From an uncultured Pseudomonadota bacterium (GTDB lineage: Bacteria > Pseudomonadota > Alphaproteobacteria > Rs-D84), in the NCBI GenBank assembly GCA_902787305.1, contig CADAFS010000004.1, forward strand, positions 5,582-69,581: a DNA stretch of 64,000 nt, written 5' to 3'. The notes below the pieces were generated by a model. That model was not told the origin of the DNA. It made no database searches and saw only the letters and a list, made by a program, of their open reading frames with translations. Each line of letters begins with the position of its first letter. Positions within the stretch are counted from its first letter, which is position 1. The position numbers and the translations under genes are program-made. This document shows positions 2,895 to 62,147 of this stretch, one piece after another.

Positions 2895-4175
2895 TTATTT
2901 CTTTAACGCCTTGATAAATTCTTCGGCCTTTTTCTTGGTGTCGTTATACAGCGTTTTCAAATCTTTTTGCAGGTTTGTCCCGATTCCCGCATCAATTCCA
3001 CCACCAATTGATTTTGCAATTTCATCCGCATGCGTTGCGATATACGCAACCAACGCACCGGTCATAAGTAATGTGATAACATTGCCGTCCAATATAGAAA
3101 TAATATGCGTTTGCGTGTTTAATTGAACCGCACCACCAAGCAACGCGCCACCAATCGAAACAACAATCGCAAGTGCGACAAAATAAATCGCCGCATCAAT
3201 GAACTTTTTAACCTGGGACGAAAGACTCGATGTTTTGAATATGCCAAGGAACCCATTATATATATCGCCGGCGATACCTTTATACGATGTCTTTTGAACC
3301 GTTTCCGCAATCGCCGTAAATGGCAACAGTATGATAACAAGGAATAAATCCGCAATCACACCAAACGCAACAAATGCAAACTTAAATGCGGTATATATGA
3401 ACAAGACAACAAACACCAATCCCATTAAAAATGTAAATGTGCTGGTCCCCAATCCCGCGCCCATCATTTTCCAACCGAACTTTATCGCACCATAATAAAA
3501 CCCGGACATCCGCGTTGGCACACACATAATATCTGCGGCGGTTTTTGCATCAACAATCGATGTGTCTGTCATATGTGCCGCGGCATAATTTTGAATTGCG
3601 GCGCATGTGTCAGAAAGTTCAAAATTACCAATTTTCGCAACCGTATCCAAAATCAGATTCGCAACATACGAACCAAACGCAACAATTGGCCCCATAATCA
3701 TTCCAAACAATCGTGGCAATCCGATTCCCAAAATTATCAACCATATCGCAAGTGTGATACCTTTTTTTATTATATCTTCGACCGTTGGCATCGCTTTGAC
3801 TTTGGAATCTTTAATCATCCGGTACGCTTCGAACATAACCCAAAAAATGAAAGCAACAATTAAAAATATATTCACAAACCGTACCAACGAATCATCCAAA
3901 ATATGTGCCGTGTATGTCAATGCACTCATAAAAGATATCCCAAGTTTTGCCTCTATCGGAACACCGGTTTCAACATATTCGCGTTCGAATCCTGACTCAA
4001 AACCATCCAAATCATTTTGCACGGTTTGAATAAGTTCTTCGCGATTGTGTTCGGTTGTCCATGCACCGAAATCGCCAATGTCGCCGGTCACCAAATTAGA
4101 TTCCGCCGCCACCGCCACACCGCAAAAAGCGATACAAACAACAAACAATAAAAATTTTTTAATTATGTTTTTCAT
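2895..4175 (-). CDS. virB6: VirB6/TrbL-like polytopic membrane protein, paralogue 1
   Basis: Signal peptide, several long hydrophobic helices and the segment LLPFTAIAETVQKTSYKG, which resembles the TrbL/VirB6 core. ATGA overlap with the upstream paralogue. Family call is from pattern recall only. Confidence 0.55.
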   Translation of the reverse strand: MKNIIKKFLLFVVCIAFCGVAVAAESNLVTGDIGDFGAWTTEHNREELIQTVQNDLDGFESGFEREYVETGVPIEAKLGISFMSALTYTAHILDDSLVRFVNIFLIVAFIFWVMFEAYRMIKDSKVKAMPTVEDIIKKGITLAIWLIILGIGLPRLFGMIMGPIVAFGSYVANLILDTVAKIGNFELSDTCAAIQNYAAAHMTDTSIVDAKTAADIMCVPTRMSGFYYGAIKFGWKMMGAGLGTSTFTFLMGLVFVVLFIYTAFKFAFVAFGVIADLFLVIILLPFTAIAETVQKTSYKGIAGDIYNGFLGIFKTSSLSSQVKKFIDAAIYFVALAIVVSIGGALLGGAVQLNTQTHIISILDGNVITLLMTGALVAYIATHADEIAKSIGGGIDAGIGTNLQKDLKTLYNDTKKKAEEFIKALKK

Positions 4176-5629
4176 TTTTCCTTTATCAATTTATCCGCAA
4201 ATTCTTGTGGTTTTTTCCATGTCATTTTGACCAATTTTTTCAAATCTGTGCCAAAATTATCAACACCGCCGCCACTATCATCGGATTTTCCAAACGGTTC
4301 AAAAGACGGCACACTTGCAATAAGTTTATCAACACGTGGCGCCAAAACATAGAAATATATAAATATCAACCCCGCCATTAAAAGCAAAAATCCAAAACCG
4401 TCACGCATAAAATCAAATGCCCCCGGGTATCGTGATTCGATTTGTGCCTGATGCAAATTAAAGCAATTTTTGAATGCGTCTTTATCCACCGTGCCGTTTA
4501 TCGTTGCCGCCGATTCACATGTTGCGAAAACATTTCTTATGGACAACGCGGTGGTATCGGTTGGCATTACTTCACCAACCAACAATGGCGGGAATATCGC
4601 ACTATATTTATCCACCGGCCCGGGGAAAAATTCGTCGGCGGCAAAGAACACCATCGCGTAAACAATTACAACCTTTAATGATATTGCGACGACTTTTATC
4701 GCTGCTTCAATTAAAATGTCCACGGATTTCTTTACAACACCCGATGCCTTTTTCCATGTTTTTTCAAATGCCGCCGCCGCCGCAAGTAATGGTAAAAATA
4801 TCACAAGGAAAACAAGTTTGAATATCACCGACAAAATTTCAAAGAACAAATTGAATCCAATTACAACGAACATAATCACAACCAACAATCCCGCAATCCA
4901 TGTGAACGCGCCACCACCCAATCCCATCCACGCGTAATTCATCAGTGCGAATCCGCCCGCCGCGCCCGCAAGCATGACACTGTTGATATTTCCAACAATA
5001 CACATAAATGAATTTGAAACCGATGACATCGGATTATCAGCACCGATTTCCGCCGGCACGCATTGTGCGGAACTTGATATGCCCGTTGCCGCCATGGACA
5101 GTTCCGTTCCGACATACATCACCGGTTGAATCGTTATGTTTGATAATGCCTTTATTGATGATATACCACCCGTACCAAACGCACCGATAATTGCACCGAC
5201 AATCATAATGCGCACGCCGTTTTTCCAAACATCATCGAACCACGGACCGAACGCAAGTTTCTTTTCGCCCGTGTCCAATTTTGTTGTTTCCATCATCGCC
5301 TTGTAAATATATTTCGCACTGTGTATAAACAGGAAAACACCAAACCCAATCACCATTAAAATCCAAAGGTGCGAAACAATTGCATGCCAAAAAGATTCCG
5401 ACGCATCGCCCAGGACAAAGAACAAATCATTCACATATTTGCAAAGGAAACATCCATTTGTTGACGCAACATTTCCGTCCCCCGCACCAATTGAACGCAG
5501 GAATCCATCCATACTGGTGTACGTCAATGATGCCCCCGATAGCGATGAACTTACATACCAAATGCCAACACCCAACGCGATTGCGCCAAACAAGAAACGA
5601 ACAAGATACCCAAGGAATAATTTTTTCAT
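4172..5629 (-). CDS. virB6: VirB6/TrbL-like polytopic membrane protein, paralogue 2
   Basis: Polytopic protein with N-terminal CFLC motif and the segment FLPLLAAAAAFEKTWKK. Abuts paralogue 3 (stop 5630) and overlaps paralogue 1 by 4 nt. Confidence 0.55.
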   Translation of the reverse strand: MKKLFLGYLVRFLFGAIALGVGIWYVSSSLSGASLTYTSMDGFLRSIGAGDGNVASTNGCFLCKYVNDLFFVLGDASESFWHAIVSHLWILMVIGFGVFLFIHSAKYIYKAMMETTKLDTGEKKLAFGPWFDDVWKNGVRIMIVGAIIGAFGTGGISSIKALSNITIQPVMYVGTELSMAATGISSSAQCVPAEIGADNPMSSVSNSFMCIVGNINSVMLAGAAGGFALMNYAWMGLGGGAFTWIAGLLVVIMFVVIGFNLFFEILSVIFKLVFLVIFLPLLAAAAAFEKTWKKASGVVKKSVDILIEAAIKVVAISLKVVIVYAMVFFAADEFFPGPVDKYSAIFPPLLVGEVMPTDTTALSIRNVFATCESAATINGTVDKDAFKNCFNLHQAQIESRYPGAFDFMRDGFGFLLLMAGLIFIYFYVLAPRVDKLIASVPSFEPFGKSDDSGGGVDNFGTDLKKLVKMTWKKPQEFADKLIKEK

Positions 5630-6847
5630 CTACTTTTTCCCGTCGTCCTTTTTTTCGTCTTTATTTTCGCCACCATTTATAATTTTGTTGCCGACATTTT
5701 TTATTCCATTTGTGACCAATGCAACCAATTTTTCCGCATCATTTGCCATTTGTTCACTTAGTTTATTTTCGCCGTCACTTGCACCAAACGCCCCAAGAAC
5801 CATTTTTGAAACATTTGGAATTTGCTTGTATATATAATTCAAAACATACACCAATATAATTGCACCAATCAATGTAATACTTGCCAAATTTTCTTCCGAT
5901 AAATCAGATGCGAAAACTTCGCCCGATAAAATTGCATTCATCAATTCGTTGGTATCCATACCGGCGTCAGAAAAATATCGTGATATAATCGCAAGGATTA
6001 CCATATATGTTATCACCGCCGATGCAAGTGTTATAATCGCACTAATAAGTTTTTTTAGTTGGTTTGTGCCAAGACCTTTGCCCAATGACGACATCCAATC
6101 CGGCATTTCACCGCCACGAAATGACATCATCATAAGTCCAATCGGAAACAGAAACGCAAACATCGCCATATCTACAATCACATCTACGAAATAAAAACAA
6201 AATTTTATAAACAACTTGAAAAATCCATAGAACAAATAAAGCCCCACAAAAAACATAATAATATGTCGGAATATATCACCAAGGTTATGAATATGTTTCC
6301 ATGAAAATGCGCCGTCCATAACCGCAATCCCAAGTTTCATATAATCTTGAAACATTGTCACGGTTGTTTTCATTATCGATATAATTGTGTTGCGCAGCGC
6401 GGGTCTAAAAAAACCATCATCGTTCATTTTTGTCGGTTGATAATGTACGCGTTCATCGACCGCCGCCGGGGTCGTTTGCAACATCGCCTGGCTGTATATC
6501 AACGTCACATCGGCAACCGGTTCAAAAGTGACACGTGTTATAAAACGTGGGAATCCAACACCAACGCCAAGTAATGTTAGTGCAAACAGTGAATTTATAA
6601 CAACGCGCACAACCGATTTCATATAAAACGGGTCGCCTGTTTCCGGCTTTTTCGGGTTCACATGTTTCCACACCGCCCACACAACAAAGAACACAAACAG
6701 CACCGCAAACAGTATAAAACATATGTCGGCGATTTTATTGTAAACGGCGGCACCCGCATTCGATACAACGCGGAACAGGTTGTCAAACACGGCGCACCCC
6801 CAACACTGCACCGCGGTATCAACAAAACCGTTTAATATCCCGTTCAT
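5630..6847 (-). CDS. virB6: VirB6/TrbL-like polytopic membrane protein, paralogue 3
   Basis: Polytopic protein with N-terminal CWGCAVF motif (compare CWTCEMF in paralogue 5). Translationally coupled within the array. Confidence 0.5.
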   Translation of the reverse strand: MNGILNGFVDTAVQCWGCAVFDNLFRVVSNAGAAVYNKIADICFILFAVLFVFFVVWAVWKHVNPKKPETGDPFYMKSVVRVVINSLFALTLLGVGVGFPRFITRVTFEPVADVTLIYSQAMLQTTPAAVDERVHYQPTKMNDDGFFRPALRNTIISIMKTTVTMFQDYMKLGIAVMDGAFSWKHIHNLGDIFRHIIMFFVGLYLFYGFFKLFIKFCFYFVDVIVDMAMFAFLFPIGLMMMSFRGGEMPDWMSSLGKGLGTNQLKKLISAIITLASAVITYMVILAIISRYFSDAGMDTNELMNAILSGEVFASDLSEENLASITLIGAIILVYVLNYIYKQIPNVSKMVLGAFGASDGENKLSEQMANDAEKLVALVTNGIKNVGNKIINGGENKDEKKDDGKK

Positions 6848-8130
6848 TTTTTAATAAGCCCCAATATCTTTTTTATTGATTCATATGTTCCCTTGGCCTT
6901 TGCCGTTGTCGCGTTAAAATCACCTTTGACCTGTTCGTACATGCCTGTCATGCCCGGCGCATAAACTTCTTCCAACTGCTTTTTCGTCATATCAAATATC
7001 GCATTCATTAAAAAGAACGTAAGTATCGCCGATAGCCAAAGCATGGCGTGCCCACCAAATCCAATCGCACTGTTCGTGACCAAATTACTTGTCGCGGTTC
7101 CGCCCGCCGCAACATTGAATACACTGTTATTCAAACCAAACATCGCATGCACAATCGCAACATTTATAATCATAATAAACGCGCACGCAATCATTGTGAT
7201 AACCAGTTTGCGCAGTGCCGTAATAATTCCATCAAACGCCGGCCAGATATCAAGCCACTTGTCACTTTTCTTTGCAACCCATGCCAAAACATTAAACGGA
7301 TAAAGAATAAGTGCAACGCCAAAATCAAATATACCTTGGATAATTAGCAACGCCATAAACAAATTACATCCAACAAAGGTAAATATCAACAATACGCCCG
7401 TTATCATATCCATTATGTTTTGACCGCCGTGTGAAAATATAGTGAATAACCCACGAATTCCACGCGACACAAATTCAAACCCGCGTTTAACAACCGCATT
7501 ATTCACCGCCGACAAATCAGATATTGGCTGGATTAAAAAGTTGCAACTTTTTTTACTTATCCAATCATTTGATAAAATACTTTCAGGACATTCGATGTTT
7601 TGTTTTTTTACGCCGGTGATATTTGCCTGGTCACTAATCGCCGATGTATAAATTGCACCAAATTCCAAGAACGGATTCACCAACCATTGTGTGACATAAA
7701 TCGGCCTGACCTGCAACAGCAACACCGCGGCAACAATTGCGCGCACACCACTTTTAAGGACCGTTTCAACCATCGTGAAACCTTTAACATTGCCGTCCCA
7801 CATTTCGCCACCACCGGACATTCCGAAAAATTCCAACCACCGTTTTGGAAAATACATTTTGAACGCGTACATAAAAATAGATATCGCCAAAAACGCCCAA
7901 ACAAAAATGTAAATGATTCCGTCACCCGAACCCACAAAGTATTCATAACCGCCACGCGCAACCATCATAAACGCATCCAACACACGTGGCACAAACGGCG
8001 CAAGATTTAATTTATCAACAATTTCCCACTTTGCAAATGCCGCGCCCGGCGTGACAAAGGCCGCAACCAATAACGCCGGCACAATAATCCGCCTTAAAAA
8101 TTTTGCAAAAAGCAAACGATGTAAAAACAT
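6844..8130 (-). CDS. virB6: VirB6/TrbL-like polytopic membrane protein, paralogue 4
   Basis: Start set at the internal ATG 8130 (MFLHRLLFAKFLRR... with signal-like AAFVTPGAAFA), because the longer ORF to 8415 overlaps the divergent paralogue 5. Polytopic; contains the segment LILYPFNVLAWVAKKSDKW. Confidence 0.5.
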   Translation of the reverse strand: MFLHRLLFAKFLRRIIVPALLVAAFVTPGAAFAKWEIVDKLNLAPFVPRVLDAFMMVARGGYEYFVGSGDGIIYIFVWAFLAISIFMYAFKMYFPKRWLEFFGMSGGGEMWDGNVKGFTMVETVLKSGVRAIVAAVLLLQVRPIYVTQWLVNPFLEFGAIYTSAISDQANITGVKKQNIECPESILSNDWISKKSCNFLIQPISDLSAVNNAVVKRGFEFVSRGIRGLFTIFSHGGQNIMDMITGVLLIFTFVGCNLFMALLIIQGIFDFGVALILYPFNVLAWVAKKSDKWLDIWPAFDGIITALRKLVITMIACAFIMIINVAIVHAMFGLNNSVFNVAAGGTATSNLVTNSAIGFGGHAMLWLSAILTFFLMNAIFDMTKKQLEEVYAPGMTGMYEQVKGDFNATTAKAKGTYESIKKILGLIKK

Positions 8131-8194
8131 ACTTCCTACATTTATAATTTGATTTATATCACATCTTGGCAAAATTGTGGTATAATTAAATGAA

Positions 8195-9490
8195 ATGAGC
8201 AAGTTAAAAAAATTTTTTATTGTATTTTTATCGTTCTTTCCATTATCGGCGGGCGCGATATTGCCATGGCTGCTTGCGGCGGGTGCGGCAACGATTGCGG
8301 GATTTTCAATCTGGCGCAGTACGGCACCGGTTGATATGCAAGACGCACTTAGTTTTTTTTCTTCGTGTTGGACATGCGAAATGTTTTCTTCCATCATGGC
8401 GAAACTTTCAAACATTTTGCCACCGATTTATTACGGCATCGGCGAAGTCATAATTCCAATTGCGGCGATGCTTACGGCGGTGTATTTCACATGGACACTT
8501 GCATCAAACTTTATGAACGGCAAGGTTGAAAGTGGTTGGACAACGGCATCGAATTTTGGAACGCATTTAATCCGATTGGCGATAGTAAGTGCGTTGTTGG
8601 TATTTCCGTTACCGCGTTTAATAAGTGGCGTTGTTATCGAACCGATTTTCAATCTTGGTTTATCGGTGAATCATATAATCGGTGACACAGAAAAGTTTTC
8701 CGAATGTATGGTGGCGACGGCGCTTTTGGATGAAAACGCGAATCGCACATCATTGGCAAACGGAAATATGCCGGCGGGGGCGTTCCCGGTAAAATTGCGC
8801 AGTGGCCTGACCTGTGAACTGGCCAATGTGCACCAAGTGACCGGTCTTGGGATGACGGTTGGGTGGACAATGTTGAATATGGCATTCAACGTCGAATATA
8901 TGCATAAAATTATGTGGGATATTCCGGTTTTCCCAAATGTTCCGATATTTTTTGCAGGGCTTCTTGTTTTGGCGTTGTATTTTATGGCACTTTTGCCGAT
9001 ACCGCTTTATTTTCTTGAAATATTCGTGACGCTTGCGCTGGATATGGTTATGTTGCCGCTTATGCTGCTGTCGTGGCTGTTCAAAGGTTGGGATAAAATC
9101 TTTCCAAAGGGCGGGAAAAGTATCCAAGGCATGATAGATGATGTTATAACCGGAACGGTCGGAATCGCCATGACGGTCGTGTTTTTGGTGTTTGGCCTGT
9201 CGTTTTTAGACGCGATTGTGGGACACATTGGGGGAATATCCCGAATCGCGGCGGCAATTTCCAGTGGCGATTCGCAAATTCTTATGGATGGGCTTATGTT
9301 GCGGGACGGGGGGCTGTTGTCCATCATAATGCTTGGGGCGTTTTTTGCGGTGTTTATGACATCGATACCGAATCTGATAAAGACATTATTCAATGTCAAA
9401 ATATCCGATAAATTCTATGTGGCGGCGAAAAAAGATTTCGATTTAACCCGCGCAACACTTGGGAAATGGTGGAAAAACCTAAAAAAATAA
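8195..9490 (+). CDS. virB6: VirB6/TrbL-like polytopic membrane protein, paralogue 5 (divergent)
   Basis: Signal peptide, CWTCEMF motif, multiple TM helices and the segment MLPLMLLSWLFKGWDK. Divergent from paralogue 4 across a 64-bp spacer. Confidence 0.5.
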   Translation: MSKLKKFFIVFLSFFPLSAGAILPWLLAAGAATIAGFSIWRSTAPVDMQDALSFFSSCWTCEMFSSIMAKLSNILPPIYYGIGEVIIPIAAMLTAVYFTWTLASNFMNGKVESGWTTASNFGTHLIRLAIVSALLVFPLPRLISGVVIEPIFNLGLSVNHIIGDTEKFSECMVATALLDENANRTSLANGNMPAGAFPVKLRSGLTCELANVHQVTGLGMTVGWTMLNMAFNVEYMHKIMWDIPVFPNVPIFFAGLLVLALYFMALLPIPLYFLEIFVTLALDMVMLPLMLLSWLFKGWDKIFPKGGKSIQGMIDDVITGTVGIAMTVVFLVFGLSFLDAIVGHIGGISRIAAAISSGDSQILMDGLMLRDGGLLSIIMLGAFFAVFMTSIPNLIKTLFNVKISDKFYVAAKKDFDLTRATLGKWWKNLKK

Positions 9491-9559: not shown

Positions 9560-10075
9560 ATGAGTAGATTTCCGATTCTTTATTGGCCACACAGCACGAA
9601 GTCCGATACCACATATCAGACGGCGCGCAAAGTTATAAATGCGGCAATTGGCGCAATGCCAGAAGTTATCACAGGCGATTTAAATGTCGCCGATATTTTT
9701 GCCACGCACCCCGATGCGGTTATCTATTACCCTGTATTTTGCGGTTCAACCGGTTGGTGGGGCGAATTGCTGGGTGGGGACGCGGCCATAACGGACAAGG
9801 TTATTGTTTCCCCCGAATGCCAATTGATGGTAATTGAAAACGCGCCCGCAACGCATCATGGCCGGCGTGCGGCACACCAACTGTTCGCGGCGGAAATATA
9901 CCCAACAAGCGGATTTTTCAAGAAAATGAGTTCCGAAATCGCAACCGTTGCGGATATGTTGGCGACGGATACGGGAACGATACTTGCGTTGTTTGCCGGG
10001 CACGATAAGAACAAGTTTGTAAATATCCTTGAATCGACCGGAAATTCATATTTGGGCTGTATCGGCCAGTATTAA
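9560..10075 (+). CDS. hypothetical protein
   Basis: 171-aa ORF with no motif I recognise. Confidence 0.4.
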   Translation: MSRFPILYWPHSTKSDTTYQTARKVINAAIGAMPEVITGDLNVADIFATHPDAVIYYPVFCGSTGWWGELLGGDAAITDKVIVSPECQLMVIENAPATHHGRRAAHQLFAAEIYPTSGFFKKMSSEIATVADMLATDTGTILALFAGHDKNKFVNILESTGNSYLGCIGQY

Positions 10076-10082
10076 TATCAAT

Positions 10083-10134
10083 CACTAACCACTTACACTA
10101 ACACTAACCACTTACACTAACACTTCTCACTAAT
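10083..10134. repeat. CACTAAC/CACTTAC heptamer array (copy H1)
   Basis: cactaaccacttacactaacactaaccacttacactaacacttctcactaat. The same motif recurs at 11141, 11378, 31201, 44626, 54945 and 59288. Confidence 0.85.
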
Positions 10135-10201
10135 TCCCTTGCTTTTTCAAAAAAAGGCGGTATAATCCCCTGACAAATAAAAAACAAAAAGGGTAAAAGC
10201 G

Positions 10202-11149: not shown

Positions 11150-11172
11150 TGTAAGTGTAAGTGATTAGTGTG
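11141..11172. repeat. heptamer array (copy H2, inverted orientation)
   Basis: agtggttagtgtaagtgtaagtgattagtgtg; overlaps the stop codon of the SuhB-like gene. Confidence 0.8.
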
Positions 11173-11195
11173 CGGGGCAATGCCCCGCGTTTTTT
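11172..11195 (+). terminator. intrinsic terminator after the suhB-like gene
   Basis: Hairpin gcggggc-aat-gccccgc followed by a T-run. Confidence 0.7.
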
Positions 11196-11201
11196 GCAAA
11201 A

Positions 11202-11348
11202 ATTCCAGAGTGCGAAGTTCCCCTCCATTGGAGGGGTGCCGGGTAGCACCCGGCGGGGTGGTTAGAGTGTTCTTAATAATTTCGTATTCTCTAACCACCT
11301 CCCCCTTTGGGTACTCCTCCAAGGGAGGAGAACTTTGTTTTCTGGAAT
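11202..11348. repeat. hairpin-mosaic element E1 (MITE/REP-like) with 8-bp inverted termini
   Basis: Bounded by attccaga ... tctggaat. Contains hairpins cccctcc-att-ggagggg, gccgggt-agc-acccggc and ctcctcc-aag-ggaggag. Modules are shared with elements at 31074 and 59153. Confidence 0.8.
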
Positions 11349-11377
11349 AAGTTCGTAATTACGAATAAATTCCAGAT

Positions 11378-11410
11378 ACTACTAACCACTAGCCACCAAC
11401 ACTAACCACT
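11378..11410. repeat. heptamer array (copy H3)
   Basis: actactaaccactagccaccaacactaaccact. Confidence 0.75.
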
Positions 11411-11412
11411 AT

Positions 11413-11437
11413 AAAAAATCGCCGTGGCGATTTTTTT
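11413..11437. terminator. bidirectional hairpin terminator (left bracket of gene A cassette)
   Basis: aaaaaatcgcc-gt-ggcgattttttt; near-identical to the hairpin at 12911-12938. Confidence 0.65.
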
Positions 11438-11441
11438 ACCC

Positions 11442-11471
11442 TTGACCCGATTCGGTGATTTTTGATATAAT
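11442..11471 (+). promoter_or_regulatory. sigma-70-like promoter of fibre gene A
   Basis: TTGACC (11442-47), 18-nt spacer, TATAAT (11466-71). The CTTGACCCGATTCG block is shared with the upstream region of gene B (44693-44706). Confidence 0.55.
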
Positions 11472-11732
11472 AAATTTGAATCAGATGGGAATCTGGTTCG
11501 GGGCATTAGCGTGCCTTTACACGGTCGGTGCAAAGCATCGTAATCCATTGAAAGAATTCCAGATGTTTTTGCACCGTTATTGTATTTCCCCGATTTTGGT
11601 CGGGGTGTGTCGGTTATAAAACAGGCCTTGCCAAAATCCGACAGATCATTACTGTGTATGATACGCTAACCCCCGACCGCTTGTTTTCCAACGCGGTTTT
11701 TTCATAACAACAAACAAAATGGAGAGGACACA
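11472..11732 (+). promoter_or_regulatory. long structured 5' leader with terminator-like hairpin (possible attenuator or riboswitch)
   Basis: About 260 nt between the -10 box and the ATG. Long-range stem cggtgcaaa/tttgcaccg and hairpin ccccga..tcgggg. Terminator-like accgcttg..caacgcggt plus T6 lies about 30 nt before the SD. An upstream ggtcgggg can pair instead with ccccgacc. Confidence 0.4.
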
Positions 11733-12905
11733 ATGAAAAAGATAAATTTATTCAACCGTAATACAAATTCACCGTCATACCGGCGCAGGCCGGTATCCCG
11801 TGGTATTGTAGAGAATCGTCACACCGCGGAAGCGCGGTGCCCAGGCATCGCGATAGCGATGACTTGCCCCGCAGGGGATTTTTCATCGCAAGGCGATGAA
11901 AAACATAATGTCTGCGACGCAAGTTTTTGCATTCGCAAAAACTGGATCCCGGCCTTCGCCGGGATGACGATGATTGCGATTGCGGCGTTATTTGCCACGC
12001 CATCATTTGCGGAACCAACGGAATTGGATAAAAAAACCGTGGCATCTAAGGCATATGTCGATACGAAACAGGATAAAATCACAACTGGGTTGGTGGAGTT
12101 TAATGACGATCCTGACTATATGTTGCCGGCGATTACGACATATGATTCAACAAGTGGATTGGTTGCAAATAAAATCGGTATTTTGGATTGGCAAACCGCA
12201 GATGATGTGGGTGGATTTCTCGAGAATTTTTCCTACGAGGGTGGTGGTTACGGTTCCGAAATGGATAATTATGTTCCAACCGTTCGTGCCGTAGCGGAAA
12301 GTTTGTCGGATTTACTTAACGTCAAACAAGATAAACTTTCTTTGTTATGGACAAGCACAACAAATCCGTATAATATGGCATCCATGGGTGGGGAAACGAT
12401 TGATTTGACAACGACCCCGGGGATCGTTGATCATCGTTATATCACCGCGGGTGGGTCGCAACCACTTACCAAAAAATCCGGTGCGGATAATGTTATATTG
12501 TATATCAACGGAACAAAAACATTGGCGCAGTATCAAACATCAAACTTTGGTGGAACCGGTGATGGCGCAACCACAAATCAAAACTATATCAAGGGTGCGT
12601 TGGTGTCGTTGGAACTGCTGAAAGATGTGTATAGTGCGTTGCATAATGAAATTCAAAATGCAACCCCAACCGGCACACCGGGTAATGTCGCGATGTATGA
12701 CGCAAGCACCGGTGCGTTGGGCGATGGGGTTGCAACTTATTCCGGTGCAACGGCACAAAATCCGTATAATGCGACAAATGATGCCGCCAAAATCGCCACC
12801 GCCGCCGCGGTTGAAACGAAACAAACCAAACGTGTGTGCGCCGGATACGAACCCGGCCATGAAAATGCCCCCGATTATTGTTGGCTTTGGGATTTTCCGG
12901 ATTAA
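11733..12905 (+). CDS. KAYVD-family exported tail-fibre-like protein A (signal peptide interrupted by an in-frame mosaic element)
   Basis: Strong SD ggagagg before ATG 11733. Contains KTVASKAYVDTKQDKI, ALVSLELLKDVYS and C-terminal CAGYEPGHENAPDYCWLWDFPD. Residues ~13-78 are encoded by palindromic repeat DNA. Confidence 0.7.
   Translation: MKKINLFNRNTNSPSYRRRPVSRGIVENRHTAEARCPGIAIAMTCPAGDFSSQGDEKHNVCDASFCIRKNWIPAFAGMTMIAIAALFATPSFAEPTELDKKTVASKAYVDTKQDKITTGLVEFNDDPDYMLPAITTYDSTSGLVANKIGILDWQTADDVGGFLENFSYEGGGYGSEMDNYVPTVRAVAESLSDLLNVKQDKLSLLWTSTTNPYNMASMGGETIDLTTTPGIVDHRYITAGGSQPLTKKSGADNVILYINGTKTLAQYQTSNFGGTGDGATTNQNYIKGALVSLELLKDVYSALHNEIQNATPTGTPGNVAMYDASTGALGDGVATYSGATAQNPYNATNDAAKIATAAAVETKQTKRVCAGYEPGHENAPDYCWLWDFPD
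11769..11967. repeat. hairpin-mosaic element E2 inside the 5' end of gene A
   Basis: About 150 bp aligns with 13364-13515, including identical 44-nt (11861-11904 = 13406-13449) and 38-nt (11909-11946 = 13455-13492) blocks. Confidence 0.85.
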
Positions 12906-12910
12906 ACCAT

Positions 12911-12938
12911 AAAAAAATCGCCATTTGGCGATTTTTTT
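12911..12938. terminator. bidirectional hairpin terminator (right bracket of gene A cassette)
   Basis: aaaaaaatcgcc-attt-ggcgattttttt between convergent gene A and rpmH. Confidence 0.65.
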
Positions 12939-13089
12939 AATTTGCCGCCGTAACCGCGATTCTTTTGCGGCCCGTCGCACGGCGACGATTTAATACATCG
13001 CGACCACCCTTGGTTGCCATGCGCGCACGGAACCCGTGTGTGCGAATGCGACGTGTTTTTGACGGTTGATATGTTCTTTTAGTTGCCAT
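12937..13089 (-). CDS. rpmH: 50S ribosomal protein L34
   Basis: [24 protein letters not shown]... from the internal ATG at 13089. Confidence 0.9.
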
Positions 13090-13350
13090 TTCAAATCCTT
13101 TTGTGCGTATATTTAACCATACCTTTTGCAAAAAAGCAAATATTTTATTTACTTTTTATCAATCCCAATTTTTGCAACGCCAACACAACAAGGTGCCACG
13201 CGAACAACGCCGCAAATAAATTATAAAAAGGTAAAAATAATTCCATAAGTTTTCCTTTTTGTTCTGTTTTACTCTATTACAAACAAATCGCTTTGTCAAT
13301 CTGAATTTTGGTGCGTGTTAATGCGCAAATAAAACGGGGCAGGGGGTATT

Positions 13351-13527
13351 ATTCCAGAACCGCGTCACGCCGCCGAAGGGCGGTGCCCAGGCCGAACGTA
13401 GTGAGGACTTGCCCCGCAGGGGATTTTTCATCGCAAGGCGATGAAAAACTTGGATGTCTGCGACGCAAGTTTTTGCATTCGCAAAAACTGGACCCCGCGC
13501 TTCCGCGGGGTGACGCCTTTCTGGAAT
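13351..13527. repeat. hairpin-mosaic element E2' with attccaga/tctggaat termini
   Basis: Intergenic copy of the element found inside gene A. Consists of a chain of short hairpins with GCA, GAAG/CTTC and AAG loops. Confidence 0.85.
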
Positions 13528-13634
13528 TTTTGCATTCCTTTTTAACCGTGTAATAAAAAATTGCTTTATTTCTTGACCCGCGCGGTAAAAATTTGCTATG
13601 TTTTATATGCGAAAAACATAAGGAAAGTTTTATC

Positions 13635-31073: not shown

Positions 31074-31306
31074 AGTTCCCTCTGTTGCACGCCTTTGCGC
31101 GACGAAGAGAGGGGTGCATGAAGGACGGGGAAAAGACCACCTCCCGGCGTTCCACGCCGTACTCCTCCGCAGGAGGAGAACTTGGCAGTCTGGAATATGC
31201 CAACACTAACCACTTACACCAAGCCAGGGCAAAGCCCTGGCGCAGTCTCGGCGTAGTCCTGTCACCGCTGTGCGGTGACGGACGAAGACGGATAACCACC
31301 AATTAA
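31074..31306. repeat. hairpin-mosaic element E3
   Basis: Starts at the ABC gene stop. Shares aagttccc.., ctcctcc-gca-ggaggag and tctggaat with E1, and about 83 bp (31220-31302) with 59213-59294. Confidence 0.85.
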
Positions 31307-38566: not shown

Positions 38567-38777
38567 CATTCCGAATAAACCCCGCCCTTGCGGCGGGGTC
38601 GATGCGACCAAAGCGATAGCGATGGTCAAATCGGGGGCGGGTAAAAATATCCATCCGTCTCGCCTACTTTTTTTTGCGAAACAAGGGAACAACCCGCCCC
38701 CGCATCGCGCGAAATTTTTATTCGCGCTCTGCGGCCCCGCCGCAAGGGCGGGGCGATATTTTTTTCATTCCGATAAC
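38565..38777. repeat. hairpin-mosaic element E4 bounded by direct repeats
   Basis: ttcattccgaataa ... ttcattccgataa direct repeats. Mirror-image hairpins ccccgcccttgcggcgggg (38580-98) and ccccgccgcaagggcgggg (38735-53). Inner inverted repeat gggggcggg/cccgccccc. Confidence 0.75.
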
Positions 38778-44585: not shown

Positions 44586-44610
44586 TTATCGGAATAATAC
44601 AACAATTTCC

Positions 44611-44660
44611 AGAACGGCGTCACCCCCACTAACCACTTACACTACCACTTCACACTAACA
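44611..44660. repeat. truncated mosaic-element end plus heptamer array (H5)
   Basis: tttccagaacggcgtcac (compare 13351 attccagaaccgcgtcac) followed by cactaaccacttacactaccacttcacactaaca. Confidence 0.7.
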
Positions 44661-44802
44661 TAAAAATTTTTTCCAAAAAAATGAAAAAAGCACTTGACCC
44701 GATTCGACGAAATTTAGTAGCCTGGTATTAAAGAAATAGTTGTGTTTGTGTGCAAACGCACGGAAACCGGGCTTTTCGGGGCGAAAGGAAGGGAACGAAA
44801 AC

Positions 44803-47322
44803 ATGAAGTTTTTAACGTCGAGAGTTGTTGTATCTGCGATAGCGTCGTTTATTGCGTTTGCAATTGTGCCCGCGATTGCCACCACGCCAGAGGCCGATTT
44901 CAAAACTGTGACGTCCAAGGCATATGTTGATTCATTGATATCCAATAATGATATTTCGGGTCACAAGGTTAATGGCGCGCCATTATCAAATGCGGCATCA
45001 TACTTTTATGGCGAAGGTGTTGGTGCGGCGGACACGGCAACCAAGACGGTTAGCATACCGTCAATAACCGGCACGCCCGCGGTTGGTCAGGTCATTGTTG
45101 TCAAGCCGGCAACAACGAATACCGCATCAACGATGAAGATAAATTTAAACAACACGACGGCATACAGCGTTTTGTATAGGGGCAGTTCTAGCAATATCCC
45201 AAAGGATGTTTGGACGGCATATGTTCCGTCGATATTCGTTTTGGATGTGTCCAGTGGAACAAAATATTGGCGTTATGTCGGGACATCACCGGTGGCGATG
45301 ACATGGTCTGCAACCGAAACTGCCGCGGCCAATGCGTACAGTACTACATTTGACGGCACGACCGGAAATTGGCCGGTGGCGGATGAAAATAAATACGTCA
45401 AGGGTGATTCATTTGCCCAAGGTCTTGCATTGAAACAAAATAAGTTGCCTGCAAAATCCACCGGGAATGCGGCCCCAAAAGGAAATCAGGCCGTTGTATT
45501 GAATACCGCTGGGAATCCATCAAATGTTTACACGACCGCGGGTAAAGATTTGGCGTTAACCGCAAAATCCGGTGCGCAAAAAGTTATGAACTATATTGAT
45601 GGGACAACGGCATCCGCCACGTTTGCAACCAGTCAAGGCCTTACCGAAGCACTGGTTAAATCCGCACTTGTTTCATTGGAACTGCTGAAAGATGTGTATA
45701 GTGAACTGAATTCTAAAATTACGAACAATGCCCTGCCGACGGGGACGGCCGGTACGGTTGTGACATATAACGGAACCAATCCACAAACCGGTGTCCAACA
45801 ATTTACCGAAACCGCTATTGTGGATGCACCGGTATATACAAACGGGGATTTAACAAATGGGGATTCTTTGCCGTCGGTTGAATATGTCGAAGATGCGCTT
45901 GCCACAAAGCAGCCGATAATTCAACCGTCAACCGTTAATGGCAAAACACAAATTGTGGTAAAACCGGCATATGGTGGAACCGCCGGCAATATTGGGTATT
46001 TAACATTGGATACGGCAAGTTTGACAAGTAATAATAGTTATGTTCCGTCTTCAAAATTGGTTGCGGATAGTTTGTTGTCGAAAATGGATAAAAGGGACGC
46101 GTGGTCCGTGGACCAGGCTACAGGTGAGCTTTATAATGATTCAAATGGTGCGCTAACATCTGTATCGTATTTATACCAGGTCCCTGGAATGGCGGATTCT
46201 GGGACGCGGTGGGCAAAAGATGCGATGATCTATTGGGGCGACGAAAAAATTGTTCCGACGATGGATACGTTGGCGGTGTCGCTTACTGGGGTTTTTGACG
46301 CGCTTGATAAACGTATCCAAAATTACCCAGAGGCCAGTGATTATATTAGAGGCCAATCTGTCAAAAGTCCAAGCCAAATTGAATATACCTATGCGCCAAC
46401 ACTTACCGATGGGGCACAGTTGTTTTGGTTGCCATCTCTTGCAAAGGCGGGGGATGAAAAAGCGGATTTTTTACTGGGTGTGTACCAAAAAGAAAAAATC
46501 GTTCCGACCATGGATGAATTGGCGCATGCATTGGATGGTGTTTTGCAAACCCATGAAACCACCAGAGAATGGCAAGCTGTCTTACCTTATTACGGTCTTC
46601 GTGAAATGTCTCTTTTTGAACTTGCAGATATGATTAATATCTCTAACGCTAATGCTATATTACTTAATAGAAGTGGTTATTTGCAAACATTTGCCCCAAC
46701 ATTAGAGGCATTGATGAACGAATCATATGGGTTATACCGATTGATAGATACAAAACAAAATAAATTATCCGGTACCAATGGCGCCCTGGTCACGTATGGT
46801 GCGACCGCGGGTCAAACCGGTTCCAAAGCGATTGCAACCAGTATAAGTAATAATGCCAATACGATACCAAATACGGCGGCGGTTTACAATGCTGTAAATG
46901 CGCGACAAAATGTAATCCCGGTTGCCGGTAAATATCGTTCATCAAACACTATAACAACCGACACAGACATATCTGATTGGACCGCTACAAATATCAAGGG
47001 AACTGCACTGGTGACCAAACCAACGTCGGCAAACGGTGTTGTTGGCGAACGCAAGATTTTCGAAGCCGGCGATACATATACAAACGATGCCGCAACAAAT
47101 ATACAAATCGCGACGATAGGCGCGGTTATGGAAAACATAGAAAACACGGTCACAAAAAGATGCGTCGGATATAAACCCGGTACAAGTGTTCAAAATGCCG
47201 AAAATTGTTGGCTTTGGGAATTTGTAGGCAATTCTGCAAGTTGCATCGCTACAGGTGGATCGTGTACGAATAATAGCGAATGTTGTTCGGGAACCTGTGG
47301 TGTCGGGGGGCAATGTAATTAA
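44803..47322 (+). CDS. KAYVD-family exported tail-fibre-like protein B with C-terminal six-Cys knot
   Basis: SD aaaggaaggg before ATG 44803. Signal peptide ...IVPAIATTPEA and KTVTSKAYVDS. Repeated xPxxxxVxxxL...KQ(D/N)K units, ALVSLELLKDVYS, neck CVGYKPGTSVQNAENCWLWEF and terminal CIATGGSCTNNSECCSGTCGVGGQCN. Confidence 0.8.
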   Translation: MKFLTSRVVVSAIASFIAFAIVPAIATTPEADFKTVTSKAYVDSLISNNDISGHKVNGAPLSNAASYFYGEGVGAADTATKTVSIPSITGTPAVGQVIVVKPATTNTASTMKINLNNTTAYSVLYRGSSSNIPKDVWTAYVPSIFVLDVSSGTKYWRYVGTSPVAMTWSATETAAANAYSTTFDGTTGNWPVADENKYVKGDSFAQGLALKQNKLPAKSTGNAAPKGNQAVVLNTAGNPSNVYTTAGKDLALTAKSGAQKVMNYIDGTTASATFATSQGLTEALVKSALVSLELLKDVYSELNSKITNNALPTGTAGTVVTYNGTNPQTGVQQFTETAIVDAPVYTNGDLTNGDSLPSVEYVEDALATKQPIIQPSTVNGKTQIVVKPAYGGTAGNIGYLTLDTASLTSNNSYVPSSKLVADSLLSKMDKRDAWSVDQATGELYNDSNGALTSVSYLYQVPGMADSGTRWAKDAMIYWGDEKIVPTMDTLAVSLTGVFDALDKRIQNYPEASDYIRGQSVKSPSQIEYTYAPTLTDGAQLFWLPSLAKAGDEKADFLLGVYQKEKIVPTMDELAHALDGVLQTHETTREWQAVLPYYGLREMSLFELADMINISNANAILLNRSGYLQTFAPTLEALMNESYGLYRLIDTKQNKLSGTNGALVTYGATAGQTGSKAIATSISNNANTIPNTAAVYNAVNARQNVIPVAGKYRSSNTITTDTDISDWTATNIKGTALVTKPTSANGVVGERKIFEAGDTYTNDAATNIQIATIGAVMENIENTVTKRCVGYKPGTSVQNAENCWLWEFVGNSASCIATGGSCTNNSECCSGTCGVGGQCN

Positions 47323-54944: not shown

Positions 54945-55022
54945 GTGTTAGTGCAAGTGGTTAGTGGTTAGTAAAAAAATACTAACCATCACTAACCACT
55001 AACACTAACCACTAACACTAAA
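54945..55022. repeat. imperfect inverted repeat built from heptamer units (H6) in the rpoB-rpoC spacer
   Basis: gtgttagtgcaagtggttagtggttagt - aaaaaaat - actaaccatcactaaccactaacactaaccactaacactaaac. Confidence 0.8.
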
Positions 55023-55038
55023 CAAGGAGTTTAGAAAA

Positions 55039-59152: not shown

Positions 59153-59316
59153 ATGTGAAAGTTCCCCTCCTGCGGAGGGGTGGACGCGAAGCGGACGGGG
59201 TGGTCTTTTCACCAAGCCTGGGCAAAGCCCTGGCGCAGTCTCGGCGTAGTCGCGTCACCGCCGTGCGGTGACGGACGAAGACGGATAACCACCAACACTT
59301 ACACTAATCACTAACA
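59153..59316. repeat. hairpin-mosaic element E5 plus heptamer array (H7)
   Basis: aagttcccctcc-tgc-ggaggggtg and ccagggc-type hairpins. An 83-bp block is shared with E3. Ends in accaacacttacactaatcactaaca. Confidence 0.85.
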
Positions 59317-59383
59317 ATTTTTTTCCTTGCAAATGGGCAAGAATTGGATAGAATTAACAACTGTCGAATAAAAGGATAGAAAA

Positions 59384-61697: not shown

Positions 61698-62147
61698 CTA
61701 ATTACTAGTCCCGGTATTACTGTTACTATTATTACCGTTGCTGTTTCTGCCATATACTTGTTGATCTTCAATGGTCCATAAACTGCATGTACCCGGATTC
61801 GCACAGGTCAATTTTGATGTTTCCATTGTGGGCAAGCTTGTGACACTGCCCTTTAATGCCGATGCGGTCACCAATTTATTTCCGTCCGTTCCCGCGGTAT
61901 AACTTGTTGGGTCACTGTATATCCCGCGTTCACCGATTGTTCCGTTTCCAGTTGTTGTATACATCACAACCGCCGTTCCGGCGTTCGCGCTGTTTGTTCC
62001 CGCGGCCGGGATTTTTTCTTGTCGTGTTTCAACCGATGTATCAACGTATGCCTTGGACGATACAGTCTTACGGTCGGTTGATGTCGTTTCCGCATACGCG
62101 GTGCCAATCATAACAATTCCGCACAACAATAAATTTCCGATTCGCAT
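61698..62147 (-). CDS. KAYVD-family exported fibre-like protein D (stalk and neck only, N/S tail)
   Basis: SD aaggagag; signal ...GTAYA, KTVSSKAYVDTSVETRQEKIPAAG, neck CANPGTCSLWTI. Ends in NSNGNNSNSNTGTSN. Confidence 0.7.
   Translation of the reverse strand: MRIGNLLLCGIVMIGTAYAETTSTDRKTVSSKAYVDTSVETRQEKIPAAGTNSANAGTAVVMYTTTGNGTIGERGIYSDPTSYTAGTDGNKLVTASALKGSVTSLPTMETSKLTCANPGTCSLWTIEDQQVYGRNSNGNNSNSNTGTSN

Follow-up and report, generated by a model that had tools for sequence, protein, structure and literature searches.

The DNA analysed here, a stretch of 64,000 nucleotides of contig CADAFS010000004.1 from an uncultured alphaproteobacterium (hereafter the window), contains gene A, an open reading frame (ORF) of 390 codons at 11733-12905 on the forward strand that is intact over its full length and would encode a secreted protein. 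The coding region of its predicted signal peptide holds an in-frame mosaic of short palindromes, which is the subject of this work (coordinates of all features are collected in Table 1). An earlier note on the same DNA had located this insert at 11769-11967, behind a strong Shine-Dalgarno (SD) sequence. The in-frame insertion and the strong SD (GGAGAGGA, pairing energy -6.4 kcal/mol, for the ATG at 11733) both stand, while the boundaries of the insert shift by 2-3 nt, to 11772-11969. The note was also right that the frame stays open: the insert is free of stop codons in the frame of gene A, compared to 3 and 2 stops in frames +1 and +2. Identical DNA for the mosaic region is present in two independent metagenome assemblies, showing that the insert is not an assembly artefact. 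The extension that it would add to gene A carries 12 Lys and Arg, 6 Asp and Glu and 4 Cys in 69 residues, and includes the peptides HTAEAR and CPGIAIAMTCPAGDFSSQGDEK. Neither gene A nor its paralogue gene B has a sequence match in Pfam, NCBIfam, PHROG or the PDB, so that the label "fibre" is a provisional one. The AlphaFold2 (AF2) model of the gene A product is poor, with a mean predicted local distance difference test (pLDDT) score of 50.5 from a 47-sequence alignment; residues 1-80 have pLDDT values of 31-39 and no secondary structure.

Part of the insert recurs between genes. The 152 nt at 11818-11969 and the segment 13364-13515 are identical at 134 of 153 aligned positions (87.6%, 2 gap columns), and a 92-nt core shared by the two elements gives a blastn E value of 1e-36. 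The match of about 150 bp and the identical 44-nt block described in the earlier note were recovered, and the second identical block measures 39 nt instead of 38. These are the sole two copies within the 64-kb window, and all 5 matches to the GTCAY hairpin pattern fall inside them (0.97 expected). Both elements are 150-240 nt long, have no ORF of their own and end in inverted repeats (11774-11795 on the plus strand and 11947-11968 on the minus strand in gene A; 13351-13383 and 13495-13527 in the intergenic copy), a trait of miniature inverted-repeat transposable elements (MITEs). The ends of the intergenic insert at 13314-13555 carry an imperfect GTGT..AAAA direct repeat, a possible target-site duplication, and a solo element end lies at 44607-44626, upstream of gene B. 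As RNA, the segment 11715-12000 folds with -119.6 kcal/mol (z = -7.0), the arms of the outer hairpins pairing over long range; among terminator-like sites on the plus strand the insert holds just one weak 5-bp site. Rfam, run on the whole window at gathering thresholds, returned 4 tRNAs and nothing else. Modules that are translated within signal peptides occur in intergenic positions in many loci as well, in the window at 11198-11257, 13363-13497 and 31138-31167.

A protein search with gene A returned 212 relatives, all from uncultured Alphaproteobacteria and mostly from metagenome-assembled genomes of the rumen. Plain signal peptides, MKKFIALSVFATLFTMPSFA/EP or MKKIFILSSLIAVTLATPSFA/EP, make up about half of their N-termini. 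The remaining half begin with MKKIN(L/I)FNRNTN(S/L), followed by a widely differing repeat-derived peptide and only then by the hydrophobic core. Recurrent repeat-derived pieces are PSYRRRPVS, IPAFAGMT, IPLFSGMT, PSFRGNAESPRCCRE, ITPSPLSPTKFLKFCGTRFGATPSWKEGE and FPSREGWRVAPAGVW. The protein matches have 23 distinct extension lengths and signal peptides of 38-151 residues, and in the family as a whole the extension amounts to 13-130 residues of non-conserved, repeat-derived sequence. The plain paralogue L013 has the same 5' untranslated region (5'UTR), SD and ATG as the mosaic-bearing loci L010, L016 and the window, indicating that the ATG at 11733 is the ancestral start and that the extra DNA lies downstream of it. 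This comparison with an insert-free paralogue upholds the earlier proposal that repeat DNA was inserted between the n-region and the h-region. The minimal form found in homologues, PSYRRMPVSGGFNRGGGIPLFSGMT (75 nt), consists of two inverted GTCAT hairpins and a short spacer, similar to the doublets of repetitive extragenic palindromic (REP) sequences known as REPINs (REP doublets forming hairpins); we infer that the larger mosaics may have grown from such a doublet by addition of modules between its arms. A protein search with the 66-residue insert alone retrieved only six small ORFs (61-115 aa), none with a domain, and so lends no support to the element being in frame in other protein families. 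Scans of IMG/VR for the protein family and for the element gave no match, leaving a phage origin unsupported.

Whether the open frame goes beyond chance or the bias of gene callers was examined across loci. Against bias, these were fetched with the mature N-terminus alone as query, 19 from species-representative genomes and 16 from metagenomes; 4 extra loci came from checking gene calls that began inside the mosaic, of which L038 and L039 proved to be contig truncations, L040 a mis-called start and L041 a 5' deletion. An SD-preceded ATG in phase with the mature protein is present in 19 of the 23 mosaic-bearing loci that have 5' context, and no frameshift or in-frame stop within the mosaic was found in any of the 23. 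Across 14 distinct architectures, with mosaics of 39-390 nt and 987 codons in all, frame 0 contains no stop, compared to 35 in frame +1 and 21 in frame +2; about 28 would be expected in frame 0 at background density. The absence of stops and the perfect phase thus appear far from chance, even after a several-fold discount for non-independence. The clearest example is a comparison of L029 with the window, in which -1 and +1 indels 53 nt apart restore the frame and change IAIAMTCPAGDFSSQGDEKH to QAKRGLAPQEIFHCETMKNI, which argues for selection on the open frame and not on the peptide. The lack of secondary structure that AF2 predicts for residues 1-80 would agree with a peptide that is not conserved. 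The mosaics of L023 and L030 show net differences of +21 and +6 nt. Two further indel analyses were abandoned: single non-triplet indels taken from pairwise gap lists were dropped, the gaps being alignment artefacts, and indel lengths in the intergenic array were not used as a control because that alignment was too uncertain.

Beyond the leader, the mature part of gene A has a ratio of nonsynonymous to synonymous substitution rates (dN/dS) of 0.32-0.46 against three relatives, and mosaic-bearing ORFs are intact over at least 300 codons. The mature part is thus under purifying selection and the gene does not appear to be dead. The earlier note had left open whether the element silences or cripples the gene, and an inactivating insertion, with gene A a pseudogene or blocked in export and its open frame a transient accident, would fit the expectation that 66 extra residues in a signal peptide disturb targeting, as well as the minority of relatives without a start codon. 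The intact 390-codon ORF, the dN/dS of the mature part, the intact promoter, SD and terminator, and the recurrence of the same design in dozens of genes from several genomes all speak against it, and we regard inactivation as highly improbable.

The export signal behind the mosaic may also be serviceable. By inspection and with a simple script, gene A has the features of a Sec signal cleaved by signal peptidase I (R/K, NWIPAFAGMTMIAIAALFATP, S-F-A/E), and the same script finds a net charge of at least +1 in the 10 residues before the uncharged stretch and AxA site in 48 of 56 variants; the lysine/arginine, uncharged stretch and AxA combination is kept in nearly all of them, contrary to a crippled signal. 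Being uncharged, the reading (N)WIPAFAGMT of the last hairpin lengthens the uncharged stretch, which measures 15-25 residues in the long forms and 17-18 in most plain paralogues.

An alternative is an internal start just ahead of the hydrophobic core, at 11964 or 11970, the mosaic being a 5' leader RNA or short upstream ORF that tunes mRNA stability or initiation, and the long ORF a by-product. The GGGATGAC end of the last hairpin does create in-frame ATGs in many variants, the leader is strongly structured, four loci (L007, L020, L031 and L041) have open ORFs without a canonical ATG, and the PGAP and Joint Genome Institute (JGI) gene callers at times chose internal starts (P0091, which is L004, and P0109, which is L040). 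The pairing energies point the other way. Canonical ATGs have SD pairing of -6.3 to -10.7 kcal/mol in plain and mosaic-bearing genes alike, while internal in-frame candidates near the hydrophobic core range from +1.2 to -4.8 kcal/mol, with one at -6.0 (L004). In the window, the ATGs at 11964 and 11970 reach -1.7 and -4.1 kcal/mol, and both lie in the stem of the last hairpin; the earlier judgement that the ATG at 11964 lacks a convincing SD therefore holds. L016, L023, L030 and L001 have no internal ATG and offer just a GTG with a poor SD. The product starting at 11964 (MTMIAIAALF), like others of this type, would have no positively charged n-region, and plain paralogues share the upstream SD and ATG. 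Internal initiation also fails to explain why every mosaic stays in phase and free of stops, or why a frameshift is compensated. On balance we consider it improbable. Of the two alternatives in the earlier note, translation of the element is accordingly the one that the open frame in every sampled relative, the compensated frameshift and the better SD at the canonical start favour.

As for public annotation, start-codon calls for the family differ between pipelines, and L004 and L040 are annotated from an internal Met despite a longer, SD-preceded in-frame ORF.

To what extent does the mosaic behave as mobile or recombining DNA? Compensatory change maintains its hairpins whether the copies are coding or intergenic, and in 18 of 39 pairs both sides have changed. 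On the structure of the first sequence, pairing extends to 91.7% of cells, compared to 79% in shuffles and at most 49% with slid partners, and none of 500 shuffles matched the observed values. In 207 kb of sequence we counted 47 perfect GTCAY-headed hairpins in 24 stem/loop variants, where about 0.5 would be expected. The intergenic copy of about 239 nt (13314-13555) is an insertion polymorphism with filled and empty sites: it is present in the window and L023 and absent from L007, L016 and L030, which have otherwise identical flanks. None of the sampled loci has an exact empty allele of the signal-peptide copy; its insert-free counterparts there are plain-signal paralogues.

The four loci L007, L016, L023 and L030 are syntenic with the window (IMPase, gene, rpmH, gyrA), with identical rpmH products and gyrA identities of 99-100% for the protein and about 97% for the DNA. 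Their signal-peptide mosaics are nevertheless wholly unlike that of the window and unlike one another, although the 5'UTRs of the window and L016 are 98.5% identical, as far as about codon 5. The converse holds for the non-syntenic paralogues L008 and L015: the 198-nt mosaic differs by merely 2 and 1 substitutions (about 99% identity), while the flanking codons 1-13 and 80-125 have proportions of synonymous differences (pS) of 0.31-0.48. With the mosaic this similar between diverged flanks, divergence of the genes must be outpaced by movement of the 5' cassette among loci and genomes, or by its homogenisation. A point not made in the earlier note is that the gene A mosaic is not a lone insertion but one state of a hypervariable mosaic that most paralogues carry and that is apparently swapped between loci and strains. 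The genes themselves are mosaics too: their 5' cassette and their 3' end (C-x13-CWLW) are conserved, and the centre is non-alignable. The window and L016 are near-identical strains, yet their central parts (window 12080-12376) cannot be aligned at all, a pattern that points to recombination of segments or to diversifying selection acting on a surface protein.

This variability raises the question of whether the mosaic is retained because it is useful, as a recombination substrate for cassette exchange and on/off variation resembling the intergenic mosaic elements of Neisseria (NIMEs), or as a means of tuning translation or export through mRNA structure or in the manner of the extended signal peptide region (ESPR). 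Such a role concerns why the mosaic is kept and is compatible with its translation. In one form of this idea, a translated hairpin array under frame constraint would be a portable recombination handle that swaps 5' cassettes in a hypervariable surface-protein family, and it may also allow on/off switching via 5' deletions or adjust export kinetics the way ESPRs do. The completely different mosaics of the four syntenic strains beside near-identical gyrA, and the nearly identical mosaic between diverged flanks in L008 and L015, fit a substrate of this kind. So do the confinement of all five GTCAY hairpins of the window to 1.8 kb around gene A, the elements that flank "fibre" genes at other loci, the 5'-deleted copies with open ORFs, and the precedent of neisserial NIME arrays, which are likewise dynamic and lie beside divergent surface-protein genes (PMC1797815). 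However, the link to the gene family is partly a sampling effect, since the loci were fetched through those genes, and the coexistence of plain-signal paralogues in every genome makes the mosaic dispensable. The peptide is not conserved, no recombinase was identified, and ordinary homologous recombination between the conserved gene ends could explain the exchange. We therefore hold an adaptive role to be unlikely, and view the portable handle with similar doubt. If the latter is true, no variation module of the NIME type would have been found before in any host but Neisseria, nor one within an ORF.

Among known systems, the nearest functional analogue is the family of Rickettsia palindromic elements (RPEs; Ogata et al. 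2000), which are about 100-150 bp long and occur both between genes and in frame within proteins (PMC3184786). The gene A element is likewise palindromic, intergenic as well as in frame, and read through as extra peptide. The resemblance is one of element type and not of sequence, and the host here is a rumen alphaproteobacterium and not Rickettsia. RPEs are one fixed unit scattered in mature parts of unrelated proteins, whereas here a variable mosaic of many hairpin modules always occupies a single site in one gene family, within a signal peptide that would be cut off.

The nearest structural analogues are NIMEs and the REP sequences with their composites, bacterial interspersed mosaic elements (BIMEs) and REPINs. 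In NIME arrays, variable RS units are flanked by dRS3 inverted repeats of 20 bp; such arrays are dynamic at syntenic sites, adjoin divergent surface-protein genes and have been reported as specific to Neisseria (PMC1797815). The elements described here share with them the 20-bp GC-rich inverted repeats (ATTCCGCG-GAAA-CGCGGAAT, compared to ATTCCC-N8-GGGAAT in dRS3), the arrays with variable spacers, the strain variability at syntenic sites and the position beside divergent surface-protein genes. They differ in the GTCAY head and in the location of the mosaic, within the coding sequences of gene A and about 20 homologues, while NIMEs are intergenic by definition. The dRS3 consensus ATTCCCNNNNNNNNGGGAAT has 1 match with 2 mismatches in the window, outside the element, compared to 3.9 expected; judged by these features, the gene A repeats are an analogue of dRS3 and not a member of it. 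REP, BIME and REPIN sequences are short GC-rich palindromes with a conserved 5' head that are mobilised by REP-associated tyrosine transposases (RAYTs) (PMC3116915, PMC3337134). Conserved-head GC-rich palindromes, inverted doublets, mosaic clusters and compensatory change are common to both. The head is GTCAY here and GTAG in enterobacterial REPs, the copy number here seems low (5 hairpins in 64 kb), and the copy at 11772-11969 is intragenic and in frame, whereas REPs are extragenic by definition.

Two other comparisons are instructive. In autotransporters and two-partner secretion proteins, about 25 residues form the ESPR, a conserved protein motif (PMC2805444). Like the gene A extension, it gives a large surface or secreted protein a long N-terminal addition ahead of a Sec signal that is otherwise normal; the extension here is 13-130 residues long, non-conserved and repeat-derived, and the full-length gene A product has no Pfam match, ESPR included. 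MITEs overlapping ORFs have been described as QMITE1/2 in Coxiella (PMC5896051), and BOX, BRE and ERIC repeats behave likewise, in-frame fusions of BOX, BRE and other repeats having been reviewed (PMC3184786). With MITEs the elements here share terminal inverted repeats, the lack of a transposase, the occurrence of both filled and empty sites, a basic peptide as translation product and fusion to gene ends, whether 5' or 3', but the known fusions are single and sporadic, while here the frame is kept in at least 14 architectures at the same codon position. In the literature we found no precedent for a palindromic element in a signal peptide or for the peptide IPAFAGMT, nor any account of a signal peptide in which repeat mosaics are kept in frame.

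Taken together, the evidence from sequence comparison makes it probable that the insert is a mobile mosaic of the REPIN/NIME type and that its translation gives a Sec signal peptide a disposable extension at the N-terminus. A non-autonomous palindromic mosaic would have lodged in the signal-peptide coding region of a multi-copy, fast-recombining family of secreted proteins. It consists of 20-26 bp GTCAY-headed hairpins in inverted pairs plus spacer hairpins, and its place is exactly between the positively charged n-region MKKINLFNRNTNS and the hydrophobic core. Translation from the ancestral SD and ATG (11733) would run through the mosaic and yield an extension of about 66 residues that is basic and unstructured. 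Behind it comes an intact unit of lysine or arginine, hydrophobic core and AxA, in which IPAFAGMT would just lengthen the uncharged stretch. Signal peptidase I would then cut after AFA (12011) and leave the mature protein unchanged. The signal peptide would be a tolerant "safe harbour" in which selection removes only variants that break the frame or introduce a stop, while the mosaic evolves as nucleic acid, by compensatory hairpin changes, gain and loss of modules and exchange of whole cassettes between paralogues and strains. Because the leader is removed, the sole requirement would be an open frame and a functional lysine/arginine, core and AxA unit, matching the constraint that we see.

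Several observations weigh against this interpretation. The start is lost in 4 of the 23 loci, by deletion in L007, L020 and L041 and by a change to ATA in L031; all four retain an open ORF, a state that would fit initiation further downstream as well. Modules are shared and cassettes exchanged, so that independent frame-preserving events are fewer than loci. An extension of 70-130 residues before a cleavable signal is unusual, and the stable RNA structure, which starts about 40 nt past the ATG and beyond the initiation footprint, could impede translation or slow ribosomes. Finally, no transposase or RAYT was found among the 30 ORFs of the window scanned with Pfam. As for the start-less copies, L007 (the syntenic locus in RUG774), L020, L041 and L031 keep the mosaic and the whole mature ORF open, and they could be silent cassettes, phase-off alleles or cases of early decay.

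Table 1. Gene A, its palindromic insert and related features of the window
Feature	Position	Strand	Remarks
Promoter-like site TTGACC-18-TATAAT	11442-11471	+	11/12 match, TG-extended; kept in syntenic L016, L023 and L030
SD GGAGAGGA and ATG of gene A	11721-11735 (SD 11721-11728; ATG 11733)	+	SD 5 bases ahead of ATG; duplex -6.4 kcal/mol
Codons 1-13, MKKINLFNRNTNS (signal-peptide n-region, 5' of insert)	11733-11771	+	MKKIN(L/I)FNRNTN(S/L) in most mosaic-bearing homologues
In-frame palindromic mosaic, PSYRRRPVS...IPAFAGMT	11772-11969	+	198 nt (66 codons), almost wholly short hairpins
Outer left REP-like GTCAT-headed hairpin, GTCATACCGGC-GCAG-GCCGGTA, 22 nt	11774-11795	+	Pattern match
Second GTCAC-headed hairpin, CACCGCG-GAAG-CGCGGTG	11818-11839	+	Left end of stretch common to intergenic element
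Core small hairpins (11843-11864, 11867-11877, 11879-11903, 11922-11943)	11843-11943	+	Compensatory changes
Outer right REP-like GTCAT-headed hairpin (GTCATCCCGGC-GAAG-GCCGGGA on minus), 22 nt	11947-11968	-	Read as IPAFAGMT; source of ATGs 11964 and 11970
h- and c-regions, MIAIAALFATPSFA	11970-12011	+	Predicted signal peptidase I site after 12011 (AFA/EP); aligns with cleavage region of plain paralogues
Mature secreted protein (predicted) and stop codon	12012-12905	+	Starts EPTELDKKTVASKAYVD; C-x13-CWLW motif at end
Terminator-like 13-bp hairpin between A and T runs, 3' of gene A	12910-12939	.	Gene A's own terminator hairpin
Intergenic hairpin mosaic 5' of gene A	11150-11350	.	Modules at 11198-11257 are those translated in homologues' signal peptides (FPSREGWRVAPAGVW)
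Intergenic element copy, about 239 nt	13314-13555	+	Palindromic core 13351-13527; GTCAC hairpins 13364-13385 (+) and 13493-13514 (-)
Gene B, paralogue with plain 26-residue signal peptide MKFLTSRVVVSAIASFIAFAIVPAIA / TTPEADFKTVTSKAYVD	44803-47322	+	Sequence comparison

Some further features of the window are recorded here. Just past the predicted cleavage site, gene A has a run of eight A (GATAAAAAAAACC) at 12030-12037, a possible slipped-strand site, where most relatives have the interrupted GACAAGAAAACC. GC-rich hairpins also cluster between genes at 11150-11350, 31138-31302, 38579-38754 and 59164-59295; the segments 31214-31302 and 59207-59295 share an 89-nt block with 94% identity, and the module content of the array at 11150-11420 varies among the syntenic strains. 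A second dispersed repeat class of this genome consists of C/A-rich runs (ACTAACC or ACTTACACTAAC units) at 10064-10144, 11376-11411, 44608-44669, 54979-55026 and 59283-59325, directly 3' of genes and often beside terminator hairpins. An ORF of 149 residues on the minus strand (61698-62147) is weakly similar to the C-terminal part of gene B (27% over 132 aa) and may be a third, short family member or a fragment. Neither Pfam nor NCBIfam gave a match for five consecutive large ORFs within 2895-9490. Four of them are on the minus strand (2895-4175, 4172-5629, 5630-6847 and 6844-8415); the fifth, on the plus strand (8195-9490), has many hydrophobic segments.

In-frame palindromic elements have been known mainly as scattered cases, such as the RPEs of Rickettsia and sporadic fusions of MITEs with ORFs. 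Here, one codon position in a signal peptide predicted to be cleavable has taken up mosaics that come in at least 23 lengths, across several genomes and a gene family, and the comparative signatures point to selection on the reading frame alone and not on the peptide. The finding goes beyond a single RPE-like insertion in that the mosaics are confined to a cleavable leader, recur in many architectures and mark a surface-protein locus that is hypervariable at the level of strains. It also bears on annotation: gene callers disagree on starts, and repeat-derived peptides such as IPAFAGMT are present in many "hypothetical proteins". It also extends NIME/REPIN-like mosaics to uncultured gut Alphaproteobacteria. 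In these bacteria the family offers a natural experiment on the amount of N-terminal "junk" that is tolerated by a Sec signal, and the removable leader may be a safe harbour for selfish DNA.

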